From assembly GCA_034716895.1 (NCBI GenBank), contig JAYEKW010000062.1:17885-81884 (forward strand): 64,000 bases of DNA. The letters are read 5' to 3'. Origin of the DNA: Fidelibacterota bacterium. GTDB lineage: Bacteria > Fidelibacterota > UBA8477 > JABMPR01. Below the pieces are notes generated by a model. It did no database searches. It had not been told where the DNA came from and was given only the letters and a program-made list of their open reading frames with translations. A program made the translations under genes and the position numbers. Shown piece after piece: positions 8,743 through 61,937 of this stretch. Each line of letters begins with the position of its first letter. Within the stretch, counting starts at the first letter, position 1.

Positions 8743-8921
8743 GTTGTTCCTTCTCTCTGTCCCTTGATTTGGACCTGGTTAATTTGTATTATCTAACGGT
8801 AATACTGCATTATGAGTAAAAAAACAAGGATAATGTATCAAAGCAGTACCGAAATAAATGACAGATTATTTCTTAAATTGGTCGATTGGAAACAAAATTA
8901 TCATTCAAGGAAAGTGAAAGC

Positions 8922-9314
8922 ATGAGGAAAAGAAAATACTCTCCTGACAAAATGGCAAAAATATTTGCCGATAGAAGTCCTGAATTATCTGTGCGAAAAG
9001 TTGCCGAACTGCATGGAATAAGTGAATCGACTTATTACCGATGGAAAAGAGATTACAGCAACATAAATGACTGTGGTGATCAACTTGTCAAACAAAAAGT
9101 AGAGTTGAAGTCCCAGCAAAAATCCATTGCTTTGCTATCCCTTGATAAAGCGATGCTACTGGATATCCTACAGGGTCTACAGATCAAACCTGGGCAGAAG
9201 CGTGTTCTCGTGGATTATTTGCGAAAAACTTATATGGTAAGTGAGCGTAGAGCTTGCAAGCTGCTTCAGCTTAGCAGAACCAGTTATCGATATCTGGGTA
9301 AAAAACCGAAGTAG
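8922..9314 (+). mobile_element. IS3-family transposase remnant: OrfA HTH fused in-frame to the first ~25 residues of OrfB, with the DDE core missing
   Basis: MRKRKYSPDKMAKIF...GISESTYYRWKRDY...leucine zipper...SERRACKLLQLSRTSYRYLGKKPK then a stop. The RRAC..L..SRS.YYY motif is the start of the IS3 OrfB integrase, which is absent. The ORF in the track starts at 8886, but Met-13 is the likely start. Confidence 0.7.
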
Positions 9315-11266: not shown

Positions 11267-11365
11267 AGGCAAAAACAGAAGGAATGAAAGCAGATGCTAA
11301 ATCTGAGTATCTAAAATAATTAGCTACTTTAAAAGATGGAAGAAAAGATCTTCAAAGCAAGTATG

Positions 11366-11513
11366 ACGCCACCGCAAAAAGTTCCTTACGGTTGGAAAAT
11401 CATGCAATATGCACGTACATCAATAATAATAACCAGATAGTATAATATTGACTATGTCTATAAATACCAATACTATGCGACCTCGCGGTTAGACTTTTTG
11501 CGAGGCCGTCAAT
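11366..11513 (-). repeat. MITE-like element, copy C (diverged, minus orientation)
   Basis: ccaccgcaaaaagttccttacggttggaaaatcatgcaatatgc matches the reverse complement of the 3' end of copies A and B. The far end (agactttttgcgaggccgtcaat) matches the rc of the 5' TIR. Confidence 0.7.
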
Positions 11514-11612
11514 ATTTGCCTTGTTATCGAAAAAAATCCCCGCGACTTTTTGCACATCTCATGCTTAACATAAGACTGGTTTAATTCAAGAAAGAGCACT
11601 AAATATCATTCG

Positions 11613-14448: not shown

Positions 14449-14613
14449 CAACGTAAGTAGCCCGTATATTTTATAAAGCAGTACTCTTTGACTTGTTATT
14501 CCAATTTCTGACTGCTTATGTCGGAATAAATCGGTCTTCAACGGTCATACCGTCCGTTTTCGGTTAATGGTAAAGCCAAACAAATCTAGAACAAAATTAA
14601 ATTACACAACTAT

Positions 14614-14849
14614 GATGGTCTCGCAAAAAGTACCTCTCGCCCGCCTGCGTATAACTTCGTGCGGGCAGGCAGAGCACGCAGAGCGTTGTATTGAGCCCTT
14701 CGGTTAAGCTCAGGAACCACCTGTCGAAATAGTGCAGAGTATTGATATTAATGGATATAGAAGTATTTGCGTTATGTGGTAAAGATTAAATGAGTTAGGG
14801 CGTATTTGATGATTTTTCAACCGTAAGGAACTTTTTGCGGTTTCGTCAA
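14614..14849 (+). repeat. MITE-like intergenic element, copy A (with a ~55-bp internal insertion relative to copy B)
   Basis: Near-identical to 17941-18121 apart from the extra block cgttgtattgagcccttcggttaagctcaggaaccacctgtcgaaatagtg. The termini tctcgcaaaaagtacc / ggaactttttgcggtttcg form terminal inverted repeats. Confidence 0.85.
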
Positions 14850-15236
14850 CTTTCAATCCAGATATAGTATGATCTAGTCATATACAACCGAATTTCGCGT
14901 TTTCCAGTCAGATCAGTGCAAACTCCAGTAAATACAAATCTCGCACACAGGAAGTCAAACACAATGACAGTGCTTGCATTTAAGCATGTGGCATGGTAAT
15001 ATATCGTGAACTAATCATTAGTGGACATATAGTAGCGCATGCTATTATTAGTATACTGTTATATTGTTTTGTAATAAGCAAAAAGAAAAGACGTGAAGGG
15101 GGATAGGGGACGAGCAAACTTCTGGAGCAACAACACCAGGTTATCCAATACAGTATACGACAGGTAATGGGTATGTTTAGGCTGGAGAAAACAAAAACTA
15201 AGAAAAAACCGATTATGGGACAGAATTTATAACATT

Positions 15237-15905
15237 ATGAAAGTACAAAAAAAAGAACCTCTGGTAATTAAGGATTGTGCGCTTATCGCCCTGGCAACTG
15301 GCAGGAAAGCTCGGACACTCAAAGAACTACGCGATAATCTTGAAATAATTGAATCGGAAAGTATTTACTACCATTTCTGGGGCAGTCTTCTGCGCCCCCG
15401 TTTTGAGGATGCGGAATATCATAATGATTTTGCTGCGTGGGCCGCTCATAGTTTGAATGATAAAAAAATGGCCGAACAACTCGGGGTGGTGGATCCTACA
15501 ACATTTACAACCATGGATAATCTGCGATTTGAGTTACTGGAAATTATTGATGAAAGAATAGATGAGTTAGATGTTTTGCCCACAGCAAGCCGGGATAAGC
15601 AATTTGAATTTATCAGCTCAGAGATTGTTGTGTTTACAACCATGCAGACAGTCATTGAACCTGAGATAATGAAAACGCTTGTGTTAGAACTATCACTGGG
15701 CAGTATTTTTTATCACTTTATCGATGCGCGACGCAGGACATCCGAATCAATTGATGATTTCAGCCATTGGCTCATGTCATTTGGTGATGAATATGAAGAT
15801 GCCATCAACGGCATCGCCGATATTGACCCATACTTTTCACCCCTCACCGATTTACGCAATCAGTTGAGTGAAACCCTAATGAACCAGATACAGGATAAAA
15901 AATGA
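15237..15905 (+). CDS. Conserved hypothetical protein, translationally coupled to treT
   Basis: 222 aa, acidic and soluble. Its stop overlaps the treT start (ATGA at 15902-15905). No recognisable catalytic motif. Confidence 0.6.
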   Translation: MKVQKKEPLVIKDCALIALATGRKARTLKELRDNLEIIESESIYYHFWGSLLRPRFEDAEYHNDFAAWAAHSLNDKKMAEQLGVVDPTTFTTMDNLRFELLEIIDERIDELDVLPTASRDKQFEFISSEIVVFTTMQTVIEPEIMKTLVLELSLGSIFYHFIDARRRTSESIDDFSHWLMSFGDEYEDAINGIADIDPYFSPLTDLRNQLSETLMNQIQDKK

Positions 15906-17143
15906 ATCGTTTGATATTTGATTACGCGCCGATAACAGGACTGGATGTAATTGAACAGCTCCAACAGTTAGCCAAACCGCTTAAAGGGTTGCGCGTTGTG
16001 CATGTCAATTCCACCAAAGCCGGGGGTGGGGTTGCAGAAATATTGGATAAAATGATCCCGCTCATGAACGATTTGGGAATTGATACGAGCTGGGAAGTTA
16101 TCAATGGAAATCCTGATTTTTATAGCTGCACCAAACATTTCCACAATGCTATTCAAGGCAATAATGTACAGATACCAGCGCGTTTGCTACAGGCTTACGA
16201 GAGGACAAACACGGAAAATGCCAGTCGTCTGGAAGCAAAACTCCGCGATGCAGATGTGGTCTTTATACATGATCCGCAACCGGCTCCACTGCTGCAAAAC
16301 ATTAAAGGCAGAAAGGGAAAATGGATCTGGAGATGTCACATCGATGCAAATAAACCTAACAGGCCAGTTTGGAAGTATTTGCGAAATTATATCGCTCAGT
16401 ATGATGCCAGTATATTCTCCCTGGCTGCTTTCGCCCAACCCATGCCGCATCCTGTTTATCTCATTCCTCCCAGTATTGATCCATTGAATGAGAAAAATAT
16501 TGAGTTGGATACCAATGAGATATCTTCAGTTTGTGATCAGTTCAATATCGACCGGGATGCCCCTTTGTTGGTGCAGATCTCTCGTTTCGATCGCTTTAAG
16601 GACCCCATTGGAGTCATTCAGGCTTTGAAGCATGCAAAAAAGTTTGTACCCAATCTGCAATTGGTTCTTGCAGGGGGTGGCGCCAGCGATGATCCTGAAG
16701 GTGAGGAAGTATTAGAGGAAGTGAGATTGGCCTCAAATGGTGATCCGGATATTCACATTTTAGAGCTTCCCAACGATGCTCATCGCCAAATAAACGCACT
16801 TCAATCAGCGGCTACCATCGTCATTCAGAAATCAATTAGGGAAGGCTTTGGCTTAACCGTTACTGAGGGTATGTGGAAGCAAAAACCAGTTATCGGGGGA
16901 GATACTGGTGGGATACGACTCCAAGTGATAAATCATCATACGGGTTTTTTGGTTAATTCTCCTGAAGGGGCTGCCTTGCGTATTCGACATCTTCTTGGTA
17001 ACCCACAAAAATTATCAGAAATGGGTGTGAAGGCAAAAAAGTTTGCGAGAGAAAACTTTTTAATCACAAGGCATATCCGTGAATACTTGACTCTCATGCT
17101 TTCGTTGGTAAGCGGCACAAAACACAGAATTGACCTAAAATAA
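15902..17143 (+). CDS. treT: Trehalose glycosyltransferring synthase TreT (GT4; NDP-glucose + glucose to trehalose)
   Basis: 413 aa. Collinear with archaeal/bacterial TreT blocks: VHVNSTKAGGGVAEIL, FHNAIQGN, HDPQPAPL, WIWRCHID, PPSIDPLNEKNIEL, QISRFDRFKDP, DDPEG, SIREGFGLTVTEGMWKQKPVIG, HTGFLV, AKKFARENFLITRH. Confidence 0.8.
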   Translation: MNRLIFDYAPITGLDVIEQLQQLAKPLKGLRVVHVNSTKAGGGVAEILDKMIPLMNDLGIDTSWEVINGNPDFYSCTKHFHNAIQGNNVQIPARLLQAYERTNTENASRLEAKLRDADVVFIHDPQPAPLLQNIKGRKGKWIWRCHIDANKPNRPVWKYLRNYIAQYDASIFSLAAFAQPMPHPVYLIPPSIDPLNEKNIELDTNEISSVCDQFNIDRDAPLLVQISRFDRFKDPIGVIQALKHAKKFVPNLQLVLAGGGASDDPEGEEVLEEVRLASNGDPDIHILELPNDAHRQINALQSAATIVIQKSIREGFGLTVTEGMWKQKPVIGGDTGGIRLQVINHHTGFLVNSPEGAALRIRHLLGNPQKLSEMGVKAKKFARENFLITRHIREYLTLMLSLVSGTKHRIDLK

Positions 17144-17166: not shown

Positions 17167-17940
17167 ATGAAGAGACTAAACAATGATATAGACCTGCGTA
17201 AATTTTATAAAAAGCTGGATTCGGATGGCCCAAAATTGCTCTTCTTGGATTATGATGGAACATTGGCACCTTTCTGCGATGACCCACAGTTGGCCTATCC
17301 ATATCCAGGTATAAAAAGTATGCTTGATGCAATCATCAGTAATCCCACAGTACGGCTAGTTATTATCACGGGAAGGTCTATTAGCGAACTGCAAGCTTTA
17401 CTTGACCTGAAACAGGATGTAGAGATATGGGGCACCCACGGTCATGAGCACCTGCTCCCCAATGGAGACTATTCCTTGGTTGATCTTAGCCCGAATCAAA
17501 ACATGGGTTTAAGCTTGGGTGTTGATGCGGCTTTGTCTGTAGAGCCTTTGCTCAGGGTAGAAGAGAAACCTGGTGCGGTTGCTTTTCATTGGCGAACTAT
17601 TCAAGCCAAAGATGTTGAGAGATTTCAAAACCAATTAACAATGAAACTTGAAAATATTTCCCAGCATCACGAGTTGGTACTTAAGAAATTTGATGGGGGG
17701 CTGGAGCTTATCTCACCAACAATGGACAAAGGTAGGGCTGTTCGAGAAGTGCTGCGAGAAGTAACCCCAAATACGACAGTGGCTTACCTTGGAGATGATC
17801 TTACGGATGAGGATGCTTTCTGGGAACTAAAATATAAAGGACTGACAGTACTTGTTAGAGATGAATTGCGTGAAACACAGGCGAACCTCTGGATACAACC
17901 ACCTGACGAGCTTCTTCAGTTTTTAGAAAAATGGAAATAG
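17167..17940 (+). CDS. otsB: Trehalose-6-phosphate phosphatase (HAD family)
   Basis: LLFLDYDGTLAPF (HAD motif I), LVIITGRS, and YLGDDLTDEDAF (motif III). 257 aa. Confidence 0.85.
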   Translation: MKRLNNDIDLRKFYKKLDSDGPKLLFLDYDGTLAPFCDDPQLAYPYPGIKSMLDAIISNPTVRLVIITGRSISELQALLDLKQDVEIWGTHGHEHLLPNGDYSLVDLSPNQNMGLSLGVDAALSVEPLLRVEEKPGAVAFHWRTIQAKDVERFQNQLTMKLENISQHHELVLKKFDGGLELISPTMDKGRAVREVLREVTPNTTVAYLGDDLTDEDAFWELKYKGLTVLVRDELRETQANLWIQPPDELLQFLEKWK

Positions 17941-18121
17941 GATGGTCTCGCAAAAAGTACCTCTCGCCCGCCTGCGTATAACTTCGTGCGGGCAGGCAGA
18001 GCACGCAGAGGCGCAGAGTATTGATATTTATGGATTTAGGGGTATTTGCGTTATGTGGTTAATATTAAATGGGTTAGGGCGTATTTGATGATTTTTAAAT
18101 TACTTTTTGCGGTTTCGTCAA
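17941..18121 (+). repeat. MITE-like intergenic element, copy B, inserted between otsB and otsA
   Basis: Begins at the base after the otsB stop codon. 181 bp, with the same TIRs as copy A. Confidence 0.85.
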
Positions 18122-18167
18122 ATAGAAGAAACTGAACGAAAAATTATCCAAGAGGTAAGCAAAAAAA

Positions 18168-26249: not shown

Positions 26250-26465
26250 AAAGGAGTCTGATTCCACCTGGCAGATTATAAGGAGAATTTAGGGATATAG
26301 TTCATTATGTTTTTTTGCCATACATAATGGTAAGAAAATTAGCACTAAAAGGGCGAGGATATACAATCTTGACGAAACCGCTAGAAGTATCTGAAAATTC
26401 ATGAAATGTGCCCTAAAACCATTAAATACAACCACATATAGTGAATGCTCCTAATCCATATATAT

Positions 26466-26560
26466 CAACACTTTGCGTCATTTCGATGAACTCAATACAA
26501 CGCTCTGCGCGCTCTGCGCCCTGCGAGAGGGACTTTTTGCGAAGGCGTCAATCTTAAAAG
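26466..26560 (-). repeat. Partial MITE-like element (5' portion, minus orientation)
   Basis: The rc reads attgacgccttcgcaaaaagtccctctcgcagggcgcagagcgcgcagagcgttgtattgag, collinear with the 5' end of copy A but lacking its internal hairpin. Confidence 0.65.
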
Positions 26561-33132: not shown

Positions 33133-34632
33133 TTGTCCTGCGTGATAGCCGTTCAGGTACCTCAAATATTTTATGATTCGAAGTGTCTTGGAGTCTTTGT
33201 GACAATTGATTTCCGATTATCTTCAATGCGTATGATTAGTCGAATTCCCAAGAATATTCTCAGCGTCCTGCATGCTGCCGGTCGTTTGGCTCAAGAGTCA
33301 GATCTGGAATGCTATACTGTGGGTGGCTTTGTCCGGGATCTTATTCTTAATGTTCCCAGTAAAGATGTGGATATTATGGTCATAGGCGATGGTGTGGCCT
33401 TTGCCCGGAAATTAGGGAAGCATCTTGAGGTGCCTGAAATAGTTGAGTACGGGGAATTCGGGACAGCTCTGATTCCCTATGGTGAATTTCTGATCGAAGT
33501 GGCTTCGGCTCGTACTGAAACTTACGAAGCTGATTCCCGGAAACCCAAGGTGGTATATACCGACCTTAAAGGCGATCTCAGTCGACGAGATTTCACGGTG
33601 AATGCCATGGCTCTGAACCTTGCTCCAGATCATTTTGGTGATCTGATAGATGAATACGGAGGAATTCAGGATATCCAGGATAAGATCTTGCGGACACCCC
33701 TGGATCCCGTAAAAACCTTCGATGATGACCCCTTGCGCATGATGCGAGCAGCTCGTTTTTCAGCTCAATTGGAATTCGATCTGGTGCCGGAAGCTTTGGA
33801 AGCCATGCAGGGTTTGGTGGAGAGGATCAAGATCGTTTCACAGGAACGGGTGACGGATGAGTTGATCAAAACACTGAGAACTAAAGTGCCATCAATTGGT
33901 TTTTATGTGATGCAGGCTGCTGGTCTGCTTCCGTTGGTTTTTCCAGAGATCGCTGTATTGGGGGGCGTAGAAGATCGCGATGGACAAAGTCACAAGGATG
34001 TTTTTCACCATACTTTGAAGGTGGTGGACAATACAGCAGAACGCACGGATAAAATGCAGTTGCGTTTTGCTGCTCTGGTGCATGATATTGGAAAACCAGC
34101 GACCAAAAAATTCATTCCTGGTACAGGCTGGAGTTATCATGGTCATGAAGAACTGGGTCGTATGATGCTCAAGGAAATTGGTCCGCGTCTGCGTCTTTCG
34201 CGCAAGTTAACTGCTTATCTGAAACGGATGACTCGACTTCACCTAAGACCCATCGCTCTGGCTCAGACTGAGGTCACTGATTCTGGAATTCGCAGACTCA
34301 TTGTGGAAGCTGGAGAAAATCTGGATGACCTGATGATTTTAGTACGAGCTGATGTTACCTCCAAGGATCCCCGTCGCGTAAAACGTTATTATGGTAATTT
34401 CGATCGGGTCATGGAACGGATTGAAGTAGTTGTGGAGAAGGATGCTTTACGCGCTTTTCAGTCGCCCCTGCGTGGAAATGAGATCATCGAATTGTTGGGT
34501 ATACCACCGGGTCCTGTAATTGGTCGCATTAAAACAGCGATTGAGGAAGCGATCCTGGATGGTGAGATTCCCAACGAGTATGAAGCCGCGAAAGCATATT
34601 TTTTTAAGATTAAAAACGATTTTCTGGACTAG
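33133..34632 (+). CDS. cca: CCA-adding tRNA nucleotidyltransferase / poly(A) polymerase family with an HD domain
   Basis: Head domain GGFVRDLIL..DVDIM, RDFTVNAMA, and HD motif LVHDIGKP. The start is probably an internal Met near 33226. Confidence 0.8.
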   Translation: MSCVIAVQVPQIFYDSKCLGVFVTIDFRLSSMRMISRIPKNILSVLHAAGRLAQESDLECYTVGGFVRDLILNVPSKDVDIMVIGDGVAFARKLGKHLEVPEIVEYGEFGTALIPYGEFLIEVASARTETYEADSRKPKVVYTDLKGDLSRRDFTVNAMALNLAPDHFGDLIDEYGGIQDIQDKILRTPLDPVKTFDDDPLRMMRAARFSAQLEFDLVPEALEAMQGLVERIKIVSQERVTDELIKTLRTKVPSIGFYVMQAAGLLPLVFPEIAVLGGVEDRDGQSHKDVFHHTLKVVDNTAERTDKMQLRFAALVHDIGKPATKKFIPGTGWSYHGHEELGRMMLKEIGPRLRLSRKLTAYLKRMTRLHLRPIALAQTEVTDSGIRRLIVEAGENLDDLMILVRADVTSKDPRRVKRYYGNFDRVMERIEVVVEKDALRAFQSPLRGNEIIELLGIPPGPVIGRIKTAIEEAILDGEIPNEYEAAKAYFFKIKNDFLD

Positions 34633-34837: not shown

Positions 34838-36232
34838 ATGCTTAGGTCTGAAATTGACAATTCAATCAATAAATTAATTAGGTCTATTGAAGAGTGTGAG
34901 CTGGTTGAGGTCTTCACTGCAATTTTGGAGAATGAGGGCGAGACGAATCCAACAGTTGCGCTTCATTCTTTTAGCAAATTTCTGGAAATAACCCAGTCGT
35001 ATAATGCCTTTGAGCATAAGCTGTTAAAGATGTTTGAGTTGGAAAAGCTCAAAGATACTGCCTTTTGGGCAGCAATATTAAAACCGGACGGCCAGGATCT
35101 TAAGCGGGATATTGAAAAAGTTTGTGCTTCGATCAGATTTACGCTTGATTACCTCCCAAAAGTCCTCTCGCTAACTGGAGAGAATTTAGAAAAGATCACA
35201 TCAACAGCAGTAGAAGAGGGTAAAAAAAGTGGACTGCAATACGTAAGGTTATCGGTTGTGGTGATCGAGGAACAGGAGCTTTCATCACCCAAACGTCTAA
35301 TATTGATGTTAGAAGCGATTCAGGGACTATACGAAGTTGTGGGGCGAATTAAGAATTTGCCAGTGCGTGATCTGATTGTCACAGCATGTGATTCAGGTAA
35401 TGACAAAAAGTTTGATTTTCTAGGATCATCTGAGGCTATTGAGGGCGTAAAAGCCATCATTCTCAGTTTATGGGATGGCATCATGTTCTACAGAGATGAC
35501 AAGACGGGCAAACAAATCGAACTTATTGCTCAATCATTGCCAGTATTAGATGAGATCAATGATCTGGAAAAGACTGGCGCTTTTGGGCAGGAAGAAGCAG
35601 AGATTCTTAGACGGCGGACAATTCTATCTGTAAATAAGTTTTCACAAGCAGGAGTAACCATTCCTGAGATGGAGGATTTTACCAGATATGACCCGCGGGA
35701 GCTAATGCGTCCTGATCAAAAAATCTTGACAGCATCCAGTGAACTTGAGACATCTTCTGAACAGGAGAAATTCGCTGAACAAGTCGAGTCACCCGAACCT
35801 GCAGCGCGTGTTGAGTCGGATGGATTCGCTGAGCAAGTTGATCAACCTGAACCGGTTGCATCTGTCAAACCTGAGGAGTCAGTTGAATTAGATGACTTTA
35901 CCGCACCTGCCGCTCCGACTCAGCCAGAGCAATCACTTGAATTGGTGGACTTCACTGAATCGGATGAAACCGATGAGTTAGTGGATTTTGCCAAGCCTGA
36001 GACATCGGCTCAATCGGATGAAGCAGCTGAGTTGGTGGACTTCACTGAACCTGCTGATTCTCCCGAGCAGGAAGAAGCAACTGAATCAGATGATTCTCCT
36101 GAATCCACACCAGAATCAACCAAAGAAAAACAGTCCATTGCCCCAGTGGAAAGTGACTCTGATGAGGATAGTATCTTTAAGCGTATGGCTGCAGGCTATT
36201 TAGAGGCAAATCGCAAGACAACAAAAAAGTAG
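34838..36232 (+). CDS. Hypothetical protein with an acidic C-terminal tandem-repeat region
   Basis: 464 aa. The C-terminus carries ~4 imperfect repeats of ...E(L)VDFTEP..(S)DE.... Confidence 0.5.
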   Translation: MLRSEIDNSINKLIRSIEECELVEVFTAILENEGETNPTVALHSFSKFLEITQSYNAFEHKLLKMFELEKLKDTAFWAAILKPDGQDLKRDIEKVCASIRFTLDYLPKVLSLTGENLEKITSTAVEEGKKSGLQYVRLSVVVIEEQELSSPKRLILMLEAIQGLYEVVGRIKNLPVRDLIVTACDSGNDKKFDFLGSSEAIEGVKAIILSLWDGIMFYRDDKTGKQIELIAQSLPVLDEINDLEKTGAFGQEEAEILRRRTILSVNKFSQAGVTIPEMEDFTRYDPRELMRPDQKILTASSELETSSEQEKFAEQVESPEPAARVESDGFAEQVDQPEPVASVKPEESVELDDFTAPAAPTQPEQSLELVDFTESDETDELVDFAKPETSAQSDEAAELVDFTEPADSPEQEEATESDDSPESTPESTKEKQSIAPVESDSDEDSIFKRMAAGYLEANRKTTKK

Positions 36233-41877: not shown

Positions 41878-43122
41878 ATGACCAAAAAGAAAATAATTAT
41901 AATCGTTGTTGCAGTGGTCCTCCTGGGAGTCATTGGATATTTTGCAGTCAATAAGGAAAAAGGAAGCAGCAAGGATGTTCAGGCAGCCAGGGTTGAAAGA
42001 GGAGAGGTTGTCCACAAGGTAGCTGCCTCTGGTAAGATTCAACCTGTGGTAGAGGTTGCTGTTAGTGCCGATGTTGCTGGTCGCGTAATTAAAATGGCGG
42101 TTAAAGAAGGTGACTGGGTCAAAAAAGGACAATTCCTGGCACAACTGGATGCGACTCGTTACAAAGCAGATGTCGATCGGGCTGAACAAGTGCAGGCATC
42201 GGCTGATGCATCGCTTTCCCTGGCAGCCCTGGAAAAAAATCAACAATATAAACTTTATCAAAAGCAGATGGTGAGTGAGCTGATCTTTCAAAGCGCTATG
42301 GTTCGTTACCAACAAGCCCTGTCATCTACAAAACAAGCCCAGGCCGCTCTGACTCAATCGCGTGATAATTATAATAAAACCATAATGTTTGCTCCTATGT
42401 CAGGTACGGTAACACTGGTCAACAAGGAAGTTGGGGAGATGGCTCTGGGGTCAGCATTCAGTCGTGATATCATTATGGTTATTGCGGATCTAAACGATAT
42501 GGAAGTATTAGTTGATGTCAACGAGAATGATGTTGTTGATGTGACTCTAGGAGATACCACTGAGATCGAAATAGATGCTTTACAGGACACCATGTTTACG
42601 GGGATTGTCACTGAGATAGCCCATAGTGCCCAAAACAGTAATCTGGGGAGCCTGGACCAAGTAACCAATTTTAAAGTACATATCCGCTTAATGGATCCGC
42701 CCGATGAAATACGTCCCGGAATGTCTGCTGCAGTGGATATTCGGACGAATGTTCAACGGGATGTCTTATTTGTGCCTATTCAAAGTGTAACCATGCGGAA
42801 ACCACGGCAACTTGAAGAAAAACAGGATAAAGAGTTAAGCCGGGCGGATAGCAGCATGGATAATGAGGATGAAGACCTTGACCCAGTTGAGGTTGTATTT
42901 GTGATAGTGGATAATGAGAAGGGTAAGGGTCAGAAAGTCGAACAACGGGAGATCATCACTGGAATCATAGGTGAGCGTGATTTTGAGATCATCTCTGGTT
43001 TGGAGCTTGATGACCAGATCATTACCGGACCGTATAAACAAATCAGTCGTGGTCTCAATGATGGTGATAAGGTAAAGATAACCAAGCGGAAGAAGTTTAA
43101 TGCAGGGAAAGAAGAAAAATAG
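41878..43122 (+). CDS. macA: Efflux membrane-fusion (periplasmic adaptor) protein, MacA/HlyD family
   Basis: N-terminal TM, coiled-coil hairpin, lipoyl and beta-barrel regions (GKIQPVVEVAVSADVAGRV, LDATRY...), and a MacA-type C-terminus. Confidence 0.8.
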   Translation: MTKKKIIIIVVAVVLLGVIGYFAVNKEKGSSKDVQAARVERGEVVHKVAASGKIQPVVEVAVSADVAGRVIKMAVKEGDWVKKGQFLAQLDATRYKADVDRAEQVQASADASLSLAALEKNQQYKLYQKQMVSELIFQSAMVRYQQALSSTKQAQAALTQSRDNYNKTIMFAPMSGTVTLVNKEVGEMALGSAFSRDIIMVIADLNDMEVLVDVNENDVVDVTLGDTTEIEIDALQDTMFTGIVTEIAHSAQNSNLGSLDQVTNFKVHIRLMDPPDEIRPGMSAAVDIRTNVQRDVLFVPIQSVTMRKPRQLEEKQDKELSRADSSMDNEDEDLDPVEVVFVIVDNEKGKGQKVEQREIITGIIGERDFEIISGLELDDQIITGPYKQISRGLNDGDKVKITKRKKFNAGKEEK

Positions 43123-43138
43123 AATTCAGAATTCAGAA
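43121..43138. repeat. Left inverted repeat AGAATTCAGAATTCAGAA of the four-helix-bundle cassette
   Basis: Perfect 18-bp inverse complement of 43565-43582. Confidence 0.85.
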
Positions 43139-43152
43139 GACAGTAGACGAGA

Positions 43153-43503
43153 ATGCTGACTCCAGCAAGAAAATTTGAAGATTTACTGGTTTGGCAAAAA
43201 GCTCATGCGTTTGTACTATCAATCTATACCTTGTCCAAAACTTTTCCAAAAACAGAACAATTTGGTCTTACCAGTCAGTTTCGCCGAGCTGCAGTTTCAG
43301 TTCCTGCAAACATTGCAGAGGGCTGGAAGCGTAAAGGGAAAGCGGATAAGAAGCGGTTTTATAATATTGCACAGGCCTCCCTCGAAGAATGCCGTTACTA
43401 TCTATTACTCACTCATGACTTGGGATATGGTGAAACTGAAAATGCAAATTCACTTTGTATAGAAGTTTCAAAACTGCTCACTTCATATAACAGTAAAATC
43501 TGA
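43153..43503 (+). CDS. Four-helix-bundle protein (23S rRNA intervening-sequence protein family)
   Basis: 116 aa. FEDLLVWQKAHAFVLSIYTLSKTFPKTEQFGLTSQFRRAAVSVPANIAEGW...IAQASLEECRYYLLL is diagnostic of the family. It is inserted between macA and macB. Confidence 0.85.
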   Translation: MLTPARKFEDLLVWQKAHAFVLSIYTLSKTFPKTEQFGLTSQFRRAAVSVPANIAEGWKRKGKADKKRFYNIAQASLEECRYYLLLTHDLGYGETENANSLCIEVSKLLTSYNSKI

Positions 43504-43564
43504 TAAAATGACGATGATTAAAAAAACGATAAATGATTCTGACAAGAATTCTAACTACTGGATT

Positions 43565-43582
43565 CTGAATTCTGAATTCTTA
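43565..43582. repeat. Right inverted repeat TTCTGAATTCTGAATTCT of the four-helix-bundle cassette
   Basis: Perfect inverse complement of 43121-43138. Extra GAATTC/TTCTGA motifs lie at 43537-43560. Confidence 0.85.
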
Positions 43583-44289: not shown

Positions 44290-45510
44290 ATGAAAAGCTT
44301 CTTCTGGGAGAATTTACGCATCGCTCTGTCCGAACTTTGGGCACACAAGACTCGGACCATCTTGACCGGGACAGGTATTGTCATTGGCATCATTGCTGTG
44401 TCGCTTATGTCGACCCTGATCAGTGGTGTGGACGGTTTATTTGAAGACAGCATGAAATTTTTAGGTCGTGGAAACCTGTATGTTGAGAAATGGCCCTGGT
44501 TTGGTGATGAGGATTGGTGGACCTTAAGAAATAGACCGCGAATTGAACTTGATATGGCTGATGATATTCGAAACCGTTCTGAATATGCTCTGGAAGTTGC
44601 CACAGAAAGAGGACGCTCAGCGAACCTTAGTTATCAAGAATACTCTGCTGAGAATATTTTTATTCATGGAGTAACCTCAAATTACCCTGAAGTATCCACT
44701 GTAGATGTGGAATTTGGCCGATTTTTTACTGATTCTGAAGATCGAACAGGAGCCCAGATCATCCTGCTTGGCTCAGAAGTAGCCAAAACTCTTTTTCCCC
44801 AGGAAAACCCTCTTGATAAACTAATATTTGCTGGTTCAAAGCGTTTCAGGGTTATCGGGGTGCTGGCGGAGATGGGCAAGTTTATGGGCGCGTTTTCTCA
44901 AGATACCCAGGTTTTGATTCCCATGGAAACCTTTAATAAAATCTTTCACGGTCCCTGGGGGATGCGTCGTATTACCGTTAAAGTTCCTGAGGAACATGTT
45001 GAAGATGCCAAGGAAGAACTCCGTGGAGTTGTGCGAGTATTGCGGGGCTTGAAACCTGAAGAAAAAGATGATTTTGCAGTTAATCAACAGGATTCTTTCC
45101 GCCAAACTTACCAAGGGATCAAGATGGCCATTGGGGGAACGGGTCTAATCATTACGGCACTATCACTGTTAGTTGGGGGTATTGGTATAGCAAATATCAT
45201 GTTTGTCTCTGTTAAAGAACGTACCCGTGAGATTGGTGTACGCAAAGCGTTGGGGGCTACGCGCTCGCAGATTCAGGGGCAGTTTATGATCGAAGCCATG
45301 TTGATCACTGCTACTGGTGGCCTGGTTGGACTTCTGGTATCTACTGCTGCCAGTTTGGCTATCAGCAAATTTCTATTTCCAGCCAGCATGTCTTTCGGAA
45401 TCGCTTTCGGAGCAATTGCCCTGAGTATTGCAGTAGGACTTTTTGCCGGCCTTGCCCCTGCCAGAAAAGGAGCCAAGCTGGATCCGATCGAGGCACTTCG
45501 CTATGAATAA
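44290..45510 (+). CDS. ABC transporter permease, FtsX/MacB-like
   Basis: N-terminal TM, a large periplasmic domain, and a C-terminal FtsX-type 3-TM bundle (IGIANIMFVSVKERTREIGVRKALGA). Confidence 0.85.
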   Translation: MKSFFWENLRIALSELWAHKTRTILTGTGIVIGIIAVSLMSTLISGVDGLFEDSMKFLGRGNLYVEKWPWFGDEDWWTLRNRPRIELDMADDIRNRSEYALEVATERGRSANLSYQEYSAENIFIHGVTSNYPEVSTVDVEFGRFFTDSEDRTGAQIILLGSEVAKTLFPQENPLDKLIFAGSKRFRVIGVLAEMGKFMGAFSQDTQVLIPMETFNKIFHGPWGMRRITVKVPEEHVEDAKEELRGVVRVLRGLKPEEKDDFAVNQQDSFRQTYQGIKMAIGGTGLIITALSLLVGGIGIANIMFVSVKERTREIGVRKALGATRSQIQGQFMIEAMLITATGGLVGLLVSTAASLAISKFLFPASMSFGIAFGAIALSIAVGLFAGLAPARKGAKLDPIEALRYE

Positions 45511-45534
45511 AACAACAGTTATTACTATTTCTAC

Positions 45535-45563
45535 TTGCCACAAAGGCACAAAGACACGAAGCG
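45535..45563. repeat. Left inverted repeat of the GxxExxY cassette
   Basis: tgccacaaaggcacaaagacacgaag is the perfect 26-bp inverse complement of 46090-46115. Confidence 0.85.
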
Positions 45564-45606
45564 AATTAAGTAGATATTGTTGAAGTAGAGGTAGTTTATC
45601 AACGCG

Positions 45607-46020
45607 TTGGCATACAAAGGATTTCACGAGAGATATGAATCTCTTACAGAAAGAGAAGAGTCTATAGCAGAACAAATTGTAGATGCTGCTTTTACTGTTC
45701 ATAAAAGATTAGGACCAGGGTTACTAGAAAATATTTATGAAGTTTGCTTCTGCTATGAGCTGGAAAAACGTGGTTTGATAATCAAAAGGCAAGTAAATAT
45801 TCCAATCAAATATGATGGATTGGTATTTGATAAAGGACTACGTCTAGATGTCTTGGTCGATGACTTGATAATTTGCGAATTGAAGGCTGTTGACAAAATG
45901 AATCCAGTATGGAAGGCTCAAATTCTCAGCCACCTAAGAATGTTAAATAAAAGACTGGGGTTCTTGATAAATTTCAATGTTCCAACCATAAAAAATGGTA
46001 TCAAAAGAATTATTTTGTAA
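45607..46020 (+). CDS. GxxExxY protein (PD-(D/E)XK nuclease-fold family)
   Basis: 137 aa. Has the GPGLLENIYEVCFCYEL (GxxExxY) motif. It is inserted between two permease genes. Confidence 0.85.
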   Translation: MAYKGFHERYESLTEREESIAEQIVDAAFTVHKRLGPGLLENIYEVCFCYELEKRGLIIKRQVNIPIKYDGLVFDKGLRLDVLVDDLIICELKAVDKMNPVWKAQILSHLRMLNKRLGFLINFNVPTIKNGIKRIIL

Positions 46021-46087
46021 GGATTCGAAAGTGTTCATAGACATAGCCAACCAAGAGCCTATCCGTTGTTCAATTACTTTTATTAAA

Positions 46088-46116
46088 ACTTCGTGTCTTT
46101 GTGCCTTTGTGGCAGG
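46088..46116. repeat. Right inverted repeat of the GxxExxY cassette
   Basis: cttcgtgtctttgtgcctttgtggca is the inverse complement of 45537-45562. It lies ~30 bp upstream of the next permease start. Confidence 0.85.
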
Positions 46117-46137
46117 TAAAACAACTGACAAAAAGGG

Positions 46138-47406: not shown

Positions 47407-47740
47407 ATCACCAAGCTTCGCTTAAGAGCTTTACCCCGGTAAACTTGATTAAACATTTTTTGTGCAATAAAAGCAATCGCGAATTTCGCTAATTGCACGA
47501 ATAATCCTCCCTCGGGGGAGGTGCTCCGCAGGAGCGGAGGGAGTTTGCAGGCAAAGCTACAGATTTAAAAAAAGTCCCACTATTCCTGACAGGGGCAGCT
47601 GATATCAAAACCTGTTTTCAAGCGCTCCTGGCTTCGTTTTTTTACTTCGCCGTAACAAGTAGAACTCAAACAGGCTTAAGCACCCCCAAAAAATGTCCCC
47701 TGAAACCAGTTTGGCTTCGCTGGAAACTAGTTTCGGAATA

Positions 47741-49398: not shown

Positions 49399-50862
49399 TT
49401 GAACACCAGCAAGTACTACAATATCGGCCAATACGGAAAGGTCATTCAGATCAGAAAAATAATTTTCATAGTTGCGCTGTACAGCTTAACCAATCTGGGA
49501 TTTTCGGCTTCTGAACCGGATACTACAAAATTTGACAGGGAAACCCGTGGTCGCCCCTTTAGTCTTGAAGATTTTTCGCAAAAACCGACTCCGAAAAAAC
49601 TTAAATCGAATCCCGATGGGGTTCCCGCATGGGTTCGTTCCGGTGAACTTCAATCTGATACAGCTTACTATGGAATTGGGAGATCCACCATTTCAGCAGA
49701 TGAAGCTGACGACGATGCCCGTCTCCGATTTGCTCAATATGTTGAAGTAAGTGTTCAAAGTATTGCTACCCAGCAGATTGCTGAGAATCGGGATCGCCTG
49801 GAAGAAAATTATAACTATGAGTCATTGGTATCTACCAATATGAATCTGCGCAGTATTAAGATTAGTGAGCGCTATCTTAGCAAAGATTCAACCTTTTATA
49901 GTTTGATCAAATATGGGAAGTCGGAATACCATGCTTTGGTCACTCAGGAGATCCAAATATCCCTGGAAACTGATATTCGCAAACAGGAACTGGCTCATCA
50001 GGCAGCAGAAGCCTTGAGTGCTGATTCTCTTCGTCATAAGCTGATGATGGACAGCCTGACTTTGGGTCGTAGGCAGGCTGTCATTGACTCTCTGGATCAT
50101 ATCCTCAAGCTGGAAGAAGCCCGGCAGCGTCAGGAACAAGACCGCATTGATCTGGTCAAAAACCAGTATTCAGCTTTTCTCAAAATCATTCCGCGCTATC
50201 AATTAATAGACGTACCCAGCGCTGTTACTCCGCAGAGTTGGTTCCACATTTCCAGTCGTTGGAATCCAGATACGCAGGATATCAGGCAGGTCAAAGTCGG
50301 AGGATCAGTTAGTCTTGTCAGCATTGAAACCAGTTTTTGGGCAACCGAGTCCACCATTGATCAGGGTGATCTGTCCCTTAAACTTCAGATTCTTCCAGAA
50401 CGAGGTGAAATATACCCGGTTAGCCTGGCTCTGGGCTGGGTCGGATATCTCGCAGCTTTTTCACCCGATAACCTGATCAATCTGAGAGAAAGTCCGACCA
50501 CCGATCAAATATGGGAAGCACTAAACGATGAACTCTCTGATCCCTCTTCACAAGGATCTAGTTTTTTTCTTACTGCTACGGTTGGAGTTCCACAGGTCAA
50601 CAATCATATTTCAGTCTATGCCGATAAACGAAAAGTATCTCTAGCCGGCATCTGGTATCCTTTCCCGCGTCACATGGGGGAGGCGATCAGCATTATCAAT
50701 CAGATCGATTACATCAGTGCTGATGAATACCACAACAGATTTGGTGACCAATTTCAGTGGCAGTTTGGTCTGAGATTGATAGCCATCTCAAATCGCTTTG
50801 CCACCATGATTAGCTATGAGGATCATGAGGTCTGGATGCTGAATTTTGAATTTCAGTATTAA
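49399..50862 (+). CDS. Secreted hypothetical protein, possibly outer membrane (LPP20-like N-terminal region, C-terminus ends in aromatic residues)
   Basis: 487 aa. TTG start, hydrophobic signal-like N-terminus, ends ...NFEFQY. Confidence 0.4.
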   Translation: MNTSKYYNIGQYGKVIQIRKIIFIVALYSLTNLGFSASEPDTTKFDRETRGRPFSLEDFSQKPTPKKLKSNPDGVPAWVRSGELQSDTAYYGIGRSTISADEADDDARLRFAQYVEVSVQSIATQQIAENRDRLEENYNYESLVSTNMNLRSIKISERYLSKDSTFYSLIKYGKSEYHALVTQEIQISLETDIRKQELAHQAAEALSADSLRHKLMMDSLTLGRRQAVIDSLDHILKLEEARQRQEQDRIDLVKNQYSAFLKIIPRYQLIDVPSAVTPQSWFHISSRWNPDTQDIRQVKVGGSVSLVSIETSFWATESTIDQGDLSLKLQILPERGEIYPVSLALGWVGYLAAFSPDNLINLRESPTTDQIWEALNDELSDPSSQGSSFFLTATVGVPQVNNHISVYADKRKVSLAGIWYPFPRHMGEAISIINQIDYISADEYHNRFGDQFQWQFGLRLIAISNRFATMISYEDHEVWMLNFEFQY

Positions 50863-51131
50863 AATGAAACCACGGATTTCACTGAACAGGGATAATCGCG
50901 AATTACGCTAATTACACGAAATCTTTTCTCGCGCAGACGAGACGCAGAGAACGTGAAGGTTTATAGTCTAAAGATTTCAAAATTCTACATTTGTTAATCG
51001 ATGTTCAGAATGAAAATCCTCAACATTCAGATCAATTGTTTCTGAATCCTGTCCCCCTCTATGTTTATATATTTACGTTTCACTACGATGCACAATTCAA
51101 ATTATCATGGGTAAACTTCTGAATTCTGATT

Positions 51132-52304
51132 TTAAATCTTCACAAAAATTTTCTTATAATACAGATACCACAGAATCCCCAGCCAGAACAGGATAAAGGT
51201 AATTGCAAACAGGAGTGAGCCATTCAATTCACCTGCCAGTGGAACAAAGAAACCGTTGTATAGCGCGTGTTTGATCGAAATGATGGCTCCTTCTGAATCA
51301 GTGGTTTTTATCCGATACATCAATCGTCCAATGATTCCAGATCCCACAAATACCACCAGGGGATTGCTGCCGAAAACAATGGCAGGTTTGGTCCAGAAAG
51401 TCATTTTTTTTACATCGATAAGGTAAGAGGAAATAACGATCATCAGGATTGCCAGTCCATCCATGACGATAACATAGGAAACCGTCCACAATTGTTTATT
51501 AATTGGTTCTATCAGGCTGAGCAGTGATCCTGCAATAAAAAGGATGATTCCAATTACAGTCAGATTTGTCAATTTCTCCTGATGGCCAATTGGACGACGT
51601 AGATATTCACCCAGCCAAAAGCCACTCATGAGTGTTACCGCTGCCGGCAGGGTGGATAACAGGCCCTCTGGATCAAATGGCAATCCCATACCGCCGTATA
51701 TATGAGCTTCACCCAGAATGAGGATATCCAGATAACGGACAAAATTATATTCCAGCTCAAAACTACCGGCACCCCAACCTTCAATTAGCGGAACCCGCAT
51801 AAAGAACTCGTAGATCAGGATGAGTACTGCAACGGACAGAATCCTATCCCTGTTTTTCGGGAAGTAAAGAATGATCAATCCACCGATCAGATAGCTCAAG
51901 CCAATTCTTTGCAAGACGCCCACAAAACGCAATGTTTCAAATCGGCGGAATATGTCGAGGAATTCAAAATCAGCAGCCATTTGAGCATTAAGCGGGATGT
52001 TGAATGGGAAACCATTCAAAAACAAACCGAATCCGATGATGATAGCAGTCCGGGACCAGACTTTTTTCTTCAAATCCCTTACATCAGCACCAGCTTCCAC
52101 CCGTTTTCCGAAACTGAGCGCCATGGCTACACCCACAATAAACAGGAAGAAAGGGAATACCAGATCTGTTGGTGTCCAACCGTGCCATTTGGCGTGTCGA
52201 AGCGGACCATATATGTGGGACCAGCTACCCGGATTGTTGACCAGGATCATGAGACCAACTGTCAATCCCCGAAAAACATCCAACGATATCATCCGACCTT
52301 TCAT
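51132..52304 (-). CDS. DUF1624/HGSNAT-like integral membrane acyltransferase
   Basis: N-terminal RMISLDVFRGLTVGLMILVNNPG is typical of DUF1624 (heparan-alpha-glucosaminide N-acetyltransferase-like) proteins. ~10 TM. Confidence 0.65.
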   Translation of the reverse strand: MKGRMISLDVFRGLTVGLMILVNNPGSWSHIYGPLRHAKWHGWTPTDLVFPFFLFIVGVAMALSFGKRVEAGADVRDLKKKVWSRTAIIIGFGLFLNGFPFNIPLNAQMAADFEFLDIFRRFETLRFVGVLQRIGLSYLIGGLIILYFPKNRDRILSVAVLILIYEFFMRVPLIEGWGAGSFELEYNFVRYLDILILGEAHIYGGMGLPFDPEGLLSTLPAAVTLMSGFWLGEYLRRPIGHQEKLTNLTVIGIILFIAGSLLSLIEPINKQLWTVSYVIVMDGLAILMIVISSYLIDVKKMTFWTKPAIVFGSNPLVVFVGSGIIGRLMYRIKTTDSEGAIISIKHALYNGFFVPLAGELNGSLLFAITFILFWLGILWYLYYKKIFVKI

Positions 52305-52827
52305 ACACTCTCCTTTAAAGCTTTATTAATTGCCACAAAGACACCAAGTCACAAAGACGCATATTGGGAAGCCATTGCGTGGTTTAGTATTTTCAAGATA
52401 GTTTGGTATCTATGCACTCATATAGGATCCAAAATAGGGTTAAAGTGAAAAATAGCCACATTAGATTTTGGAAAAGTCATGCAAACAGCCAATTGCTTGC
52501 TTCGCAAGAATTCATATGATGCAAGACATCTCTCCCCTCCAAGAGAGATACCCACAGAGGAGGGGGGGTTCAAAAGTCCAACATTTTGATTTCAGCCCTC
52601 AAAACATCGATGAGTGAGAATAATATCAGAATTCTCAGGATGAAAATAATCCCTCCAATCACATCAAACTGGTTTAATATTTGCTTCGAGCAATCATGAA
52701 TAATCCACATCAGTTAGCTAAATGGTAAATTGATGCAGTGAGTTCACACTTGAAATTTGGACTGGGAAGTTGTTATTTATCCCGTGTTTGATCAACTTAG
52801 CCTTAACCATAGATTGGAGCTAGTATC

Positions 52828-53616
52828 GTGACAGGTATTGATACTGAACTATACCCGAAAGCAGAAACTCGCCATAGTCAGCAGAGCAGTGCTTTTAAAA
52901 AAGCCAAAAGAGCTTTGCTGGATGAACGCATCAGTGCTCTAACTGGAGCCTTTTTGGCATTTTTTATTCTAGGTCACCTCATACTGGAAAGCAGTATTCT
53001 GGTGAGCGCCCAACTATATGAAGATATTGCATATTTCATGGAACATACTGTTCCCATGGCGCAGCCCCTGATCTTTATCGTAACCATCGTCTTTTTTGTT
53101 CACTTTGTCTGGGCCGGAAGGAAAATCCCGGGCAAATTACGGGATCGCAAAATAATGTTGGAATTGGGTAATAAACTAGAGACTTCTCGTAAGGGTTGGC
53201 AGCAAGATCCCAAATCTGCAATAAAGCTACGCTCTCATTTTGAGACCTCACTGTGGATCACACAGGTCCGAACCGGCATGATCGTTCTGGCTACCGGAGC
53301 TTTTCACCTCTTCCTGGTTATGTGGAATATTTTCACTGATATGGGAATCGTTGGACAAACCGTTGGGTTGACCATGGAAGTTGCTACTTCCCGTGTGGAA
53401 AGTGGGCTCTGGATTTTGTATGCAATTCTTATGATCAGTGTTGTTGCTCACATGGCCATTGGCGTTTACCGGCTGTTGGTCAAATGGCTGGCTGACACCT
53501 GGTTTGTCCGCAACTATGCCAAAGCACTTTTCTACTTACTGTTTTGGTTCTACACGATCTTGGGAACTGCTACTGTACTGGCTATGGCCGGTTCACTGAA
53601 AGGAATTCTCTCATGA
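52828..53616 (+). CDS. sdhC: Succinate dehydrogenase/fumarate reductase cytochrome b membrane anchor (single large type-B subunit)
   Basis: 262 aa, 5 TM with conserved His residues. It lies directly upstream of sdhA with a 4-bp overlap. Confidence 0.7.
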   Translation: MTGIDTELYPKAETRHSQQSSAFKKAKRALLDERISALTGAFLAFFILGHLILESSILVSAQLYEDIAYFMEHTVPMAQPLIFIVTIVFFVHFVWAGRKIPGKLRDRKIMLELGNKLETSRKGWQQDPKSAIKLRSHFETSLWITQVRTGMIVLATGAFHLFLVMWNIFTDMGIVGQTVGLTMEVATSRVESGLWILYAILMISVVAHMAIGVYRLLVKWLADTWFVRNYAKALFYLLFWFYTILGTATVLAMAGSLKGILS

Positions 53617-61454: not shown

Positions 61455-61937
61455 TATTTCATTTGACTACAAATTATTGAAAAGAACAAACGCCCATTAA
61501 TCAAGGTCCTGATGTGTGAAAAGCTATTCTGAGTCCCAAGTTGGTATTCTATCAATTGGTCTTTAAAACACGCACTTTGCGTCTTCGAGAGAGTGTAACG
61601 AACGTGGCGATCTCCAAATATCAATTGCATTTCCAAAGTGCACGATAAATTCAAGGGATCACCCTACACTTTGCAAGTTACGGGAGACAAGGTTTTTCCA
61701 GCAACGAATAGAACACGCACTTCGAAGTGAAATTGGCATTGTCGTTCCCCTCAGTTTTATCCGCGAAAATCTGCGAATATCTACGGCTAAAATGAAAGGG
61801 CTTGAAACACCTGCAAAAATGGTTTGAAAAAATTTGCAGTATTGAATTGGCAGCCACTTTACAATAGATTAATCGTCTTAAACAAAGAATGAAATCCGGT
61901 CTCAAATTGGGTAGACCATAAGCTCGTTAGGGGAATT

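Follow-up and report, generated by a model that had tools for sequence, protein, structure and literature searches.

Two short tandem-repeat motifs flank an acyltransferase gene of the DUF1624 type in a 64,000-nucleotide (nt) stretch of DNA from a Fidelibacterota bacterium (GenBank assembly GCA_034716895.1, contig JAYEKW010000062.1, positions 17,885 to 81,884 of the forward strand), here referred to as the window. One motif is built of octamers and lies just upstream of the start codon; the other is built of heptamers and touches the stop codon. We conclude that both are probably orphaned ends of small elements that carry inverted repeats at their borders, and that these elements decayed in place. 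The element-terminus reading is strongly supported for the octamer motif and moderately supported for the heptamer motif. Whether the heptamer motif in particular is a relic arm we regard as close to evenly balanced; it comprises only two units, and its origin is correspondingly less certain.

The comparison relies on two intact cassettes of the same window, each of which carries a minigene as an open reading frame (ORF) between inverted arms. These cassettes, the DUF1624-like gene, and the motifs around it are as follows.

43121-43580, plus strand: intact four-helix-bundle cassette (arms 43121-43146 and 43555-43580; TIGR02436 ORF 43153-43503).
45529-46121, plus strand: intact GxxExxY cassette (arms 45529-45561 and 46089-46121; TIGR04256 ORF 45607-46020).
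51116-51131, plus strand: two-unit heptamer motif CTTCTGAATTCTGATT (CTTCTGA, ATTCTGA, TT), adjoining the DUF1624 TAA stop (51132-51134, minus strand); probable relic of a heptamer-array arm.
51132-52304, minus strand: HGSNAT_cat / DUF5009 (DUF1624-like) acyltransferase gene, 390 amino acids (PF07786, E = 6e-8); a bystander between the two proposed relics.
52330-52360, plus strand: solo octamer-array arm TTGCCACAAAGACACCAAGTCACAAAGACGC, with units CACAAAGA, CACCAAGT, and CACAAAGA at 52334-52357 and the outer terminus TTGCCAC (52330-52336) toward the DUF1624 start.
52373-52385, plus strand: CATTGCGTGGTTT, a weak single unit and possibly the vestigial outermost unit of a lost right arm (low confidence).

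Both reference cassettes sit between genes of a TolC-HlyD-ABC-FtsX-FtsX efflux operon. Four-helix-bundle genes have previously been noted between operon genes, for example, between cmr3 and cmr2 (PMC3936711). The inverted repeat of the four-helix-bundle cassette is 26 nt long, 92% complementary, and composed of GAATTCT heptamers, and that of the GxxExxY cassette is 33 nt long, 94% complementary, and composed of the octamers CACAAAGG/CACAAAGA/CACGAAG. Heptamers thus accompany one cargo and octamers the other, so that an earlier note on this DNA was right in kind when it distinguished two types of inverted repeat; the period is 7 in the four-helix-bundle cassette and 8 in the GxxExxY cassette.

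The octamer motif lies where that note had placed it and, as it had proposed, resembles an arm of the GxxExxY cassette. It matches the pattern TTGCCACAAAGNCACNAAGNCACNAAG with 0 mismatches (shuffle expectation, 0.00) and is identical to the arm of the window's own cassette (45532-45561) at 25 of 30 positions. It is closer still, at 22/24, to the left arm of a GxxExxY cassette that is inserted into another slot of the efflux operon in a related locus (L010). The motif has both features by which we define a GxxExxY arm, namely, at least two to three tandem units of CNCNRAG plus one variable base and the terminus (T/A)(T/A)(G/A)CCAC. The ATG at 52304 lies 25 nt beyond its outer end, and an AAGGAG ribosome-binding site occupies part of that gap. 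No antisense octamer array was found when an inverted partner was sought within ∼0.8 kb of 52330, nor did tblastn or six-frame Pfam searches (E up to 10) detect a GxxExxY ORF on the inner side, in 52305-52700. The claim that both motifs are solo therefore stands as regards a full partner arm, but not as regards weak vestiges: one lies at 52373-52385, and the other is the best inverted partner of the heptamer motif, a 10/12 complement 86 nt away. The 9-mer CATTGCGTG, as at 52373-52385, occupies the expected place of the right arm in a decayed cassette of another related locus (L001).

The heptamer motif had likewise been described as abutting the 3′ end of the DUF1624 gene and as cassette-like. 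The likeness holds, with 15/16 positions identical to the cassette arm at 43124-43139 (minus strand), including an exact shared run of 14 nt; the coordinates are 51116-51131 rather than 51117-51132. When the heptamer arm is taken as a 19-mer and up to 3 mismatches are allowed, 0.02 sites are expected per shuffled window, and one extra site was observed. Contact with a stop codon reproduces the geometry of the intact cassette, an arm of which overlaps the HlyD stop (43120-43122). The motif nevertheless falls short of our definition of a four-helix-bundle arm, which comprises at least three heptamers, an inverted partner, and a flanked TIGR02436 ORF, and the same tblastn and Pfam searches revealed no remnant of a four-helix-bundle ORF beside it.

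Lineage-specific inserts around the DUF1624 gene

We gathered orthologous DUF1624 loci through homologs at 83 to 99% protein identity. Both motifs are absent from the orthologous loci at 83 to 88% identity, and no octamer array occurs upstream of DUF1624 in any other lineage compared. The genome of the window is one of Marinimicrobia (SAR406), and in the Marinimicrobia loci, octamer arrays are found only at GxxExxY cassettes and at the solo. Each motif of the window coincides with one edge of an insert.

50863-51131, no strand: lineage-specific insert of 269 nt that separates the LPP20-like and DUF1624 genes, which converge and whose stop codons are 3 nt apart in L001.
50894-50920, plus strand: arm composed of 9-mers, AATCGCGAATTACGCTAATTACACGAA, at the opposite end of that insert, 93% identical to 47475-47501.
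52330-52669, no strand: lineage-specific noncoding spacer upstream of DUF1624, about 365 nt versus about 100 nt in relatives and identical in L009.

The divergent spacer between sdhC and DUF1624 measures 523 nt in the window and in L009, a strain at 99% identity, and 276 to 291 nt in L001 to L008, L012 to L014, and L231. Longer spacers of their own, both without an octamer array, are present in L010 (616 nt) and L234 (405 nt). The upstream insert amounts to ∼260 extra noncoding bases directly upstream of the conserved TAAAGGAG, with the octamer arm as its gene-proximal edge (alignment A1), and the conserved block resumes at 52670 (blastn). The heptamer motif is, in the same manner, the gene-proximal edge of the downstream insert. 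Rfam yielded nothing in 50800-52900 at E up to 1 and only a tRNA in the whole window, and folding z-scores are ordinary for both the upstream insert (0.11) and the 269-nt insert (−0.45). In L010, the DUF1624 stop is followed by an apparent leftover of the LPP20-like 3′ end.

Several observations weigh against an origin of the motifs from decayed elements. The inserts hold no Pfam match in six frames (E up to 10) and no remnants of cassette proteins (tblastn and the same Pfam scan), and a full cassette at either flank of DUF1624 was not found in relatives (8 further lineages), so that past occupancy by a minigene is inferred, not seen. Furthermore, the window holds a second octamer solo in a comparable position.

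33180-33205, minus strand: further solo octamer arm, which reads TTGTCACAAAGACTCCAAGACACTTC on the minus strand and lies 20 nt before the start of the gene for the CCA-adding enzyme.

It shares 24 of 29 positions with the DUF1624 solo, the outer flank GTG(G/A)CAATT among them, and it is retained in L235, a lineage at 94% protein identity. Both octamer solos thus lie 20 to 25 nt upstream of start codons, and one of them is conserved, which leaves room for a co-opted role, perhaps within a 5′ leader. Upstream of this arm, L235 carries a perfect short hairpin (∼2395-2440; CTCAGCCACCG...CGGTGGCTGAG, with GCCACC/GGTGGC ends) that is absent from the window.

The remaining objections concern the heptamer motif. 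Its two units could be a low-complexity match due to chance, or else a leftover or partial copy of the LPP20-like 3′ end; this explanation is possible, but we consider it doubtful. The native end of that gene, CTGAATTTTGAATTTCAG, is identical to the motif at 12 of 16 positions, and 50840-50860 and 51120-51140 share 76% identity over 21 nt. GAATTC also occurs 0 to 17 nt past the DUF1624 stop in L013, L231, L233, and L234, and GAATTCT arrays are present in 43 viral-contig loci that lack both a four-helix-bundle gene and an inverted partner within 900 nt. Set against this, the motif is closer to the window's cassette arm (15/16) than to the LPP20-like end, chance accounts for only 0.02 sites per window, the contact with the stop codon is that of the intact arm, and no GAATTC-N-GAATTC array occurs in the 1.25 Mb of other loci fetched. 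The four loci with GAATTC after the DUF1624 stop have differing downstream genes.

Octamer arrays at GxxExxY genes across phyla

The protein encoded by the window's GxxExxY cassette belongs to TIGR04256 / PF13366 and has a PD-(D/E)XK fold, with D81, E91, and K93 invariant; a PDB sequence search found no solved relative. To examine the association from cargo to arm, we took 80 metagenome loci chosen solely because they encode a relative of this protein, 65 of which had adequate flanks. A sense CNCNRAG array was present on the left in 51/65, an antisense array on the right in 53/65, and both in 45/65, against a background density of 0.046 arrays per kb. The outer end (T/A)(T/A)(G/A)CCAC, read from the 51 left arms, is common to the arms and is shared by the window's solo.

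In the reverse direction, from arm to context, a scan with the pattern CACAAAGNCNCNAAGNCACRAA in one genome per species returned at least 120 loci in Bacteroidota, Ignavibacteria, Chloroflexi, Cyanobacteria, Planctomycetes, Acidobacteria, Proteobacteria, Verrucomicrobia, Actinomycetota, and others; by our own rough estimate, ∼35 chance matches of 17 fixed bases would be expected in 596 Gb. Desulfonema magnum (NZ_CP061800) and Flavobacterium denitrificans DSM 15936 are among the matches listed. A partner arm lay inward for 36 of 80 arms and outward for 6. Loops of 400 to 550 nt hold GxxExxY genes in Erythrobacter, Flavobacterium, Anaerolineaceae, Desulfobacterales, and alphaproteobacterial genomes.

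Of the 64 arms flanked by 1.5 kb of sequence in both directions, 31 belonged to cargo-less hairpins (loop of <200 nt), 3 to longer loops, and 4 had an outward partner only, and the remaining 26 (41%) were solo. These proportions bear on a cargo-less variant of the proposed explanation, in which the solos of the window derive from hairpins like REPINs (paired repetitive extragenic palindromic [REP] sequences) and no minigene ever stood at the site. We entertain this variant only tentatively. It agrees with short hairpins being the commonest form of the arm (31/64, versus 3 with longer loops), with the possible one-unit partner just 12 nt beyond the solo (52373-52385), and with the lack of coding remnants inside the inserts. 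However, that candidate partner is weak, and the remaining ∼280 nt of lineage-specific spacer would go unexplained.

Within pairs of arms, the bases at unit positions 1, 3, 5, 6, and 7 almost invariably complement each other, and those at position 2 do so in 86% of cases. At the variable positions 4 and 8, the figures are 58% and 66%, compared with 34% and 41% expected. No G·U strand asymmetry was detected at the variable arm positions (25 versus 22), and thus sequence support for selection on pairing at the RNA level was not obtained. Conservation of the octamer unit across phyla exceeds the demands of pairing and thereby suggests sequence-specific recognition.

The window's GxxExxY protein (45607-46020) is 73 to 84% identical to proteins named from Cloacimonetes and Desulfobacterales, whereas the DUF1624 protein, for which a 100% identical database protein is named from a Candidatus Marinimicrobia metagenome-assembled genome, reaches 57% identity in its best match with a non-Marinimicrobia name. 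This difference fits the “multiple transfers” noted for PDDEXK_3 (PMC3424549). Most contigs with close GxxExxY homologs are shorter than 3 kb, as expected because multicopy repeats break assemblies. Target-site duplications are weak and inconsistent: the mean longest word shared between flanks is 4.83 nt in 64 cassettes versus 4.53 nt in controls, with a few direct repeats of 8 to 9 nt. A 9-nt direct repeat, TAAAACAAC, at 45508-45516 and 46117-46125 brackets the intact GxxExxY cassette of the window, and an 8-nt direct repeat, CCATGGGC, brackets the cassette of L147.

Four-helix-bundle cassettes with inverted tandem heptamers were found not only in the window but also at 7 additional, distinct loci of viral contigs, and their heptamer sequence varies by cassette (GAATTCT, TCGGCNN, GAGTAGG, and TTGGCTG). 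Single-protein scans of viral contigs for GxxExxY returned nothing. A literature search covering octamer strings and family names found no description of heptamer or octamer arrays, and the octamer array flanking GxxExxY minigenes in many phyla does not seem to have been described previously.

Host signals, excision, and probable decay in place

The earlier note had also considered that the motifs might be native signals of the host, either promoters of the Bacteroidetes TTTG type or terminator-like sequences, which the cassettes had borrowed. The Bacteroidetes sigma-AB promoter has TTTG at −33 and TAnnTTTG at −7, with ∼19 to 21 nt from the first box to the second. The antisense strand of the octamer arm does contain TTTG twice, as that note had pointed out, and the arm lies 25 nt upstream of an ATG; all orthologs keep a single cTAtTTTGtg box 35 to 41 nt upstream of the DUF1624 ATG, and the second solo, retained in a lineage at 94% protein identity, stands 20 nt before the start of a different gene. 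The likeness to the sigma-AB promoter ends there. The triple octamer itself is missing from all orthologs at 83 to 88% identity, no TAnnTTTG lies upstream of 52304, and TAnnTTTG occurs upstream of only 2 of 35 genes, at 0.41 per kb upstream versus 0.39 per kb window-wide. TTTG shows no strand bias (39 sense and 36 antisense), and scans for sigma-70 promoters and intrinsic terminators call nothing at 51116-51131 or 52330-52360. The ribosome-binding site of the DUF1624 gene, AAGGAG, is strong, a feature atypical of Bacteroidetes, and the same arm is found in many phyla, which use different promoter types.

Position relative to genes argues in the same direction. In a crude ORF-based count, outer ends of arms adjoin stops (22 solo and 37 paired) about as often as starts (19 solo and 22 paired), and other arms of the window, at 47475 and 50894, lie in convergent spacers. 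Arm-like tandem triplets are heavily concentrated between genes: they number 10 in the 9.2 kb of intergenic DNA, versus 0.87 in shuffles, and 7 in the 54.8 kb of coding DNA. Their unit sequences are many and unrelated, as would be expected from insertion at gene boundaries more than from a consensus signal of the host. Borrowing of native signals is, on this evidence, very improbable. The choice that had been posed, between generic signals at gene boundaries and element termini, turns out not to be exclusive: arrays are common at gene boundaries, yet the cause is the insertion of elements at boundaries and not a role as host signals.

Of the suggestion that the motifs are insertion or excision footprints, the first half is supported, as they are absent from orthologs and form the edges of inserts, and as octamer arrays typify GxxExxY cassettes at loci selected through their protein. 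Clean excision, by which a cassette left and one arm stayed behind as a scar, is quite unlikely. Cassette positions do differ between the window and L010, and hence gain and loss happen. In the window, nothing stands in the ABC-FtsX1 slot (TAAATG), where L010 has a cassette (14730-15354). The FtsX1-FtsX2 slot is occupied in the window and empty in L010 (TAAtccATG), and in L001 (12408-12776) it holds a cassette with an ORF truncated to 93 amino acids and a degraded right arm. At the HlyD-ABC slot, the counterpart of the window's four-helix-bundle cassette in L010 is a relic of 93 nt that contains GAATT-like fragments (16060-16152). The unoccupied slots are thus seamless and without an arm, and the intermediates that we see are truncated ORFs with degraded arms, that is, stages of gradual decay; arm-only states therefore look like the end of such decay and not like excision scars. 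At DUF1624, 260 to 270 nt of extra DNA persist at the flanks, which together with the clean empty sites looks like decay in place.

The explanation that we favor for the motifs, decay of terminal-repeat elements, would run as follows. In this genome and very widely among bacteria, GxxExxY minigenes, encoding a protein of PD-(D/E)XK nuclease fold, are bracketed by inverted arrays of 2 to 5 tandem octamers, and four-helix-bundle minigenes, of the 23S intervening sequence (IVS) protein family, are bracketed by inverted heptamer arrays of variable sequence. Such elements occupy the gap from a stop codon to the ribosome-binding site that follows it, and they, or cargo-less hairpin derivatives, probably landed on both sides of DUF1624 in the lineage of the window. 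Mutation and deletion would then have left ∼260 to 270 nt of noncoding filler in which only the arm wedged against the gene boundary is recognizable. We infer that the gene-proximal arms survive because deletions reaching them would damage the stop codon or the ribosome-binding site, and that the solo arms probably have no function of their own. In intact elements, the arms may pair as a stem, by analogy with the 23S IVS processed by RNase III, and/or serve as recognition sites of the encoded nuclease.

Known systems and other repeats in the window

The 23S rRNA IVS of Leptospira and Coxiella, with its S23p / four-helix-bundle ORF, shares with the present elements a sporadic distribution and suspected horizontal transfer. 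The long stem of the present elements parallels the IVS stem, which is cut by RNase III (PMC4990558). However, the present elements lie between protein-coding genes of an efflux operon and not in rRNA helix 9, 25, or 45, and Rfam found no rRNA in the window. Tandem heptamer or octamer arms are unmentioned in the IVS papers found, and the items at DUF1624 are single arms without an ORF or a partner.

REP sequences and their RAYT transposases include a gene flanked by inverted repeats, more numerous gene-less doublets, and singlets as decay products, all extragenic and at gene boundaries. The present elements are alike in having a gene inside inverted repeats (both flanks in 45/65 loci), many empty doublets (31/64), and singlets, but RAYT is a Y1 (HUH) transposase, whereas GxxExxY has a PD-(D/E)XK fold. 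Miniature inverted-repeat transposable elements (MITEs) and solo terminal inverted repeats of insertion sequences offer a further parallel, as nonautonomous derivatives and orphan ends that persist in intergenic DNA; unlike these, the present elements encode no transposase of a known family and have inconsistent target-site duplications. By analogy, and as a speculative proposal, GxxExxY proteins and CNCNRAG hairpins might constitute an undescribed mobile system across bacteria that resembles RAYT/REPIN. A Cas4-like PD-(D/E)XK nuclease would recognize or cut its own arms and so spread hairpins and cassettes into stop-to-start gaps, the heptamer cassettes would be a parallel system, and the solos at DUF1624 and at the CCA-adding enzyme gene would be singlet fossils.

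The solo motifs themselves are ordinary relics without demonstrated function, and the interest lies in the element family behind them. The signature (T/A)(T/A)(G/A)CCAC-NAAG-N-CNCNRAG, repeated, marks GxxExxY cassettes and empty hairpins in many phyla. It could be used to annotate such elements, to explain “hypothetical” intergenic repeats and assembly breaks, and to avoid misreading the arrays as promoters, terminators, or CRISPR-like repeats. The arms also offer a concrete DNA or RNA substrate with which to probe the uncharacterized GxxExxY nuclease and the 23S-IVS four-helix-bundle proteins.

The window contains further repeats. Solo tandem-triplet arms with units of 9 to 10 nt (AATCGCGAATTNCGCTAATTNCACGAA; CGCGAATTACGCGAAAATACGCGAAG) lie at 2763-2789, 47475-47501, 50894-50920, 1510-1545, and 61759-61788; the 9-mer arms starting at 47475 and 50894 stand in direct orientation on either side of the ProRS and LPP20-like genes. 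G+C-rich CCTCCC...GGGAGG hairpins stand in intergenic DNA of this 43% G+C genome (47505-47545, 2835-2880, 2925-2975, and 52533-52570); they resemble pairs of Shine-Dalgarno and anti-Shine-Dalgarno sequences, and two of them come after 9-mer array arms. A MITE-like noncoding element of ∼160 to 250 nt, with the termini TTGACG..CGCAAAAAGT(T/A)CCT and internal CGCAGAG-type repeats, is present in four copies (11358-11516, 14607-14856, 17934-18128, and 26364-26555), two of which are 91 to 97% identical over shared segments. Finally, a fragment of an IS3-family transposase (142 amino acids) is encoded at 8886-9314, and a tandem repeat with a 54-nt period lies in a coding region at 35757-36053.

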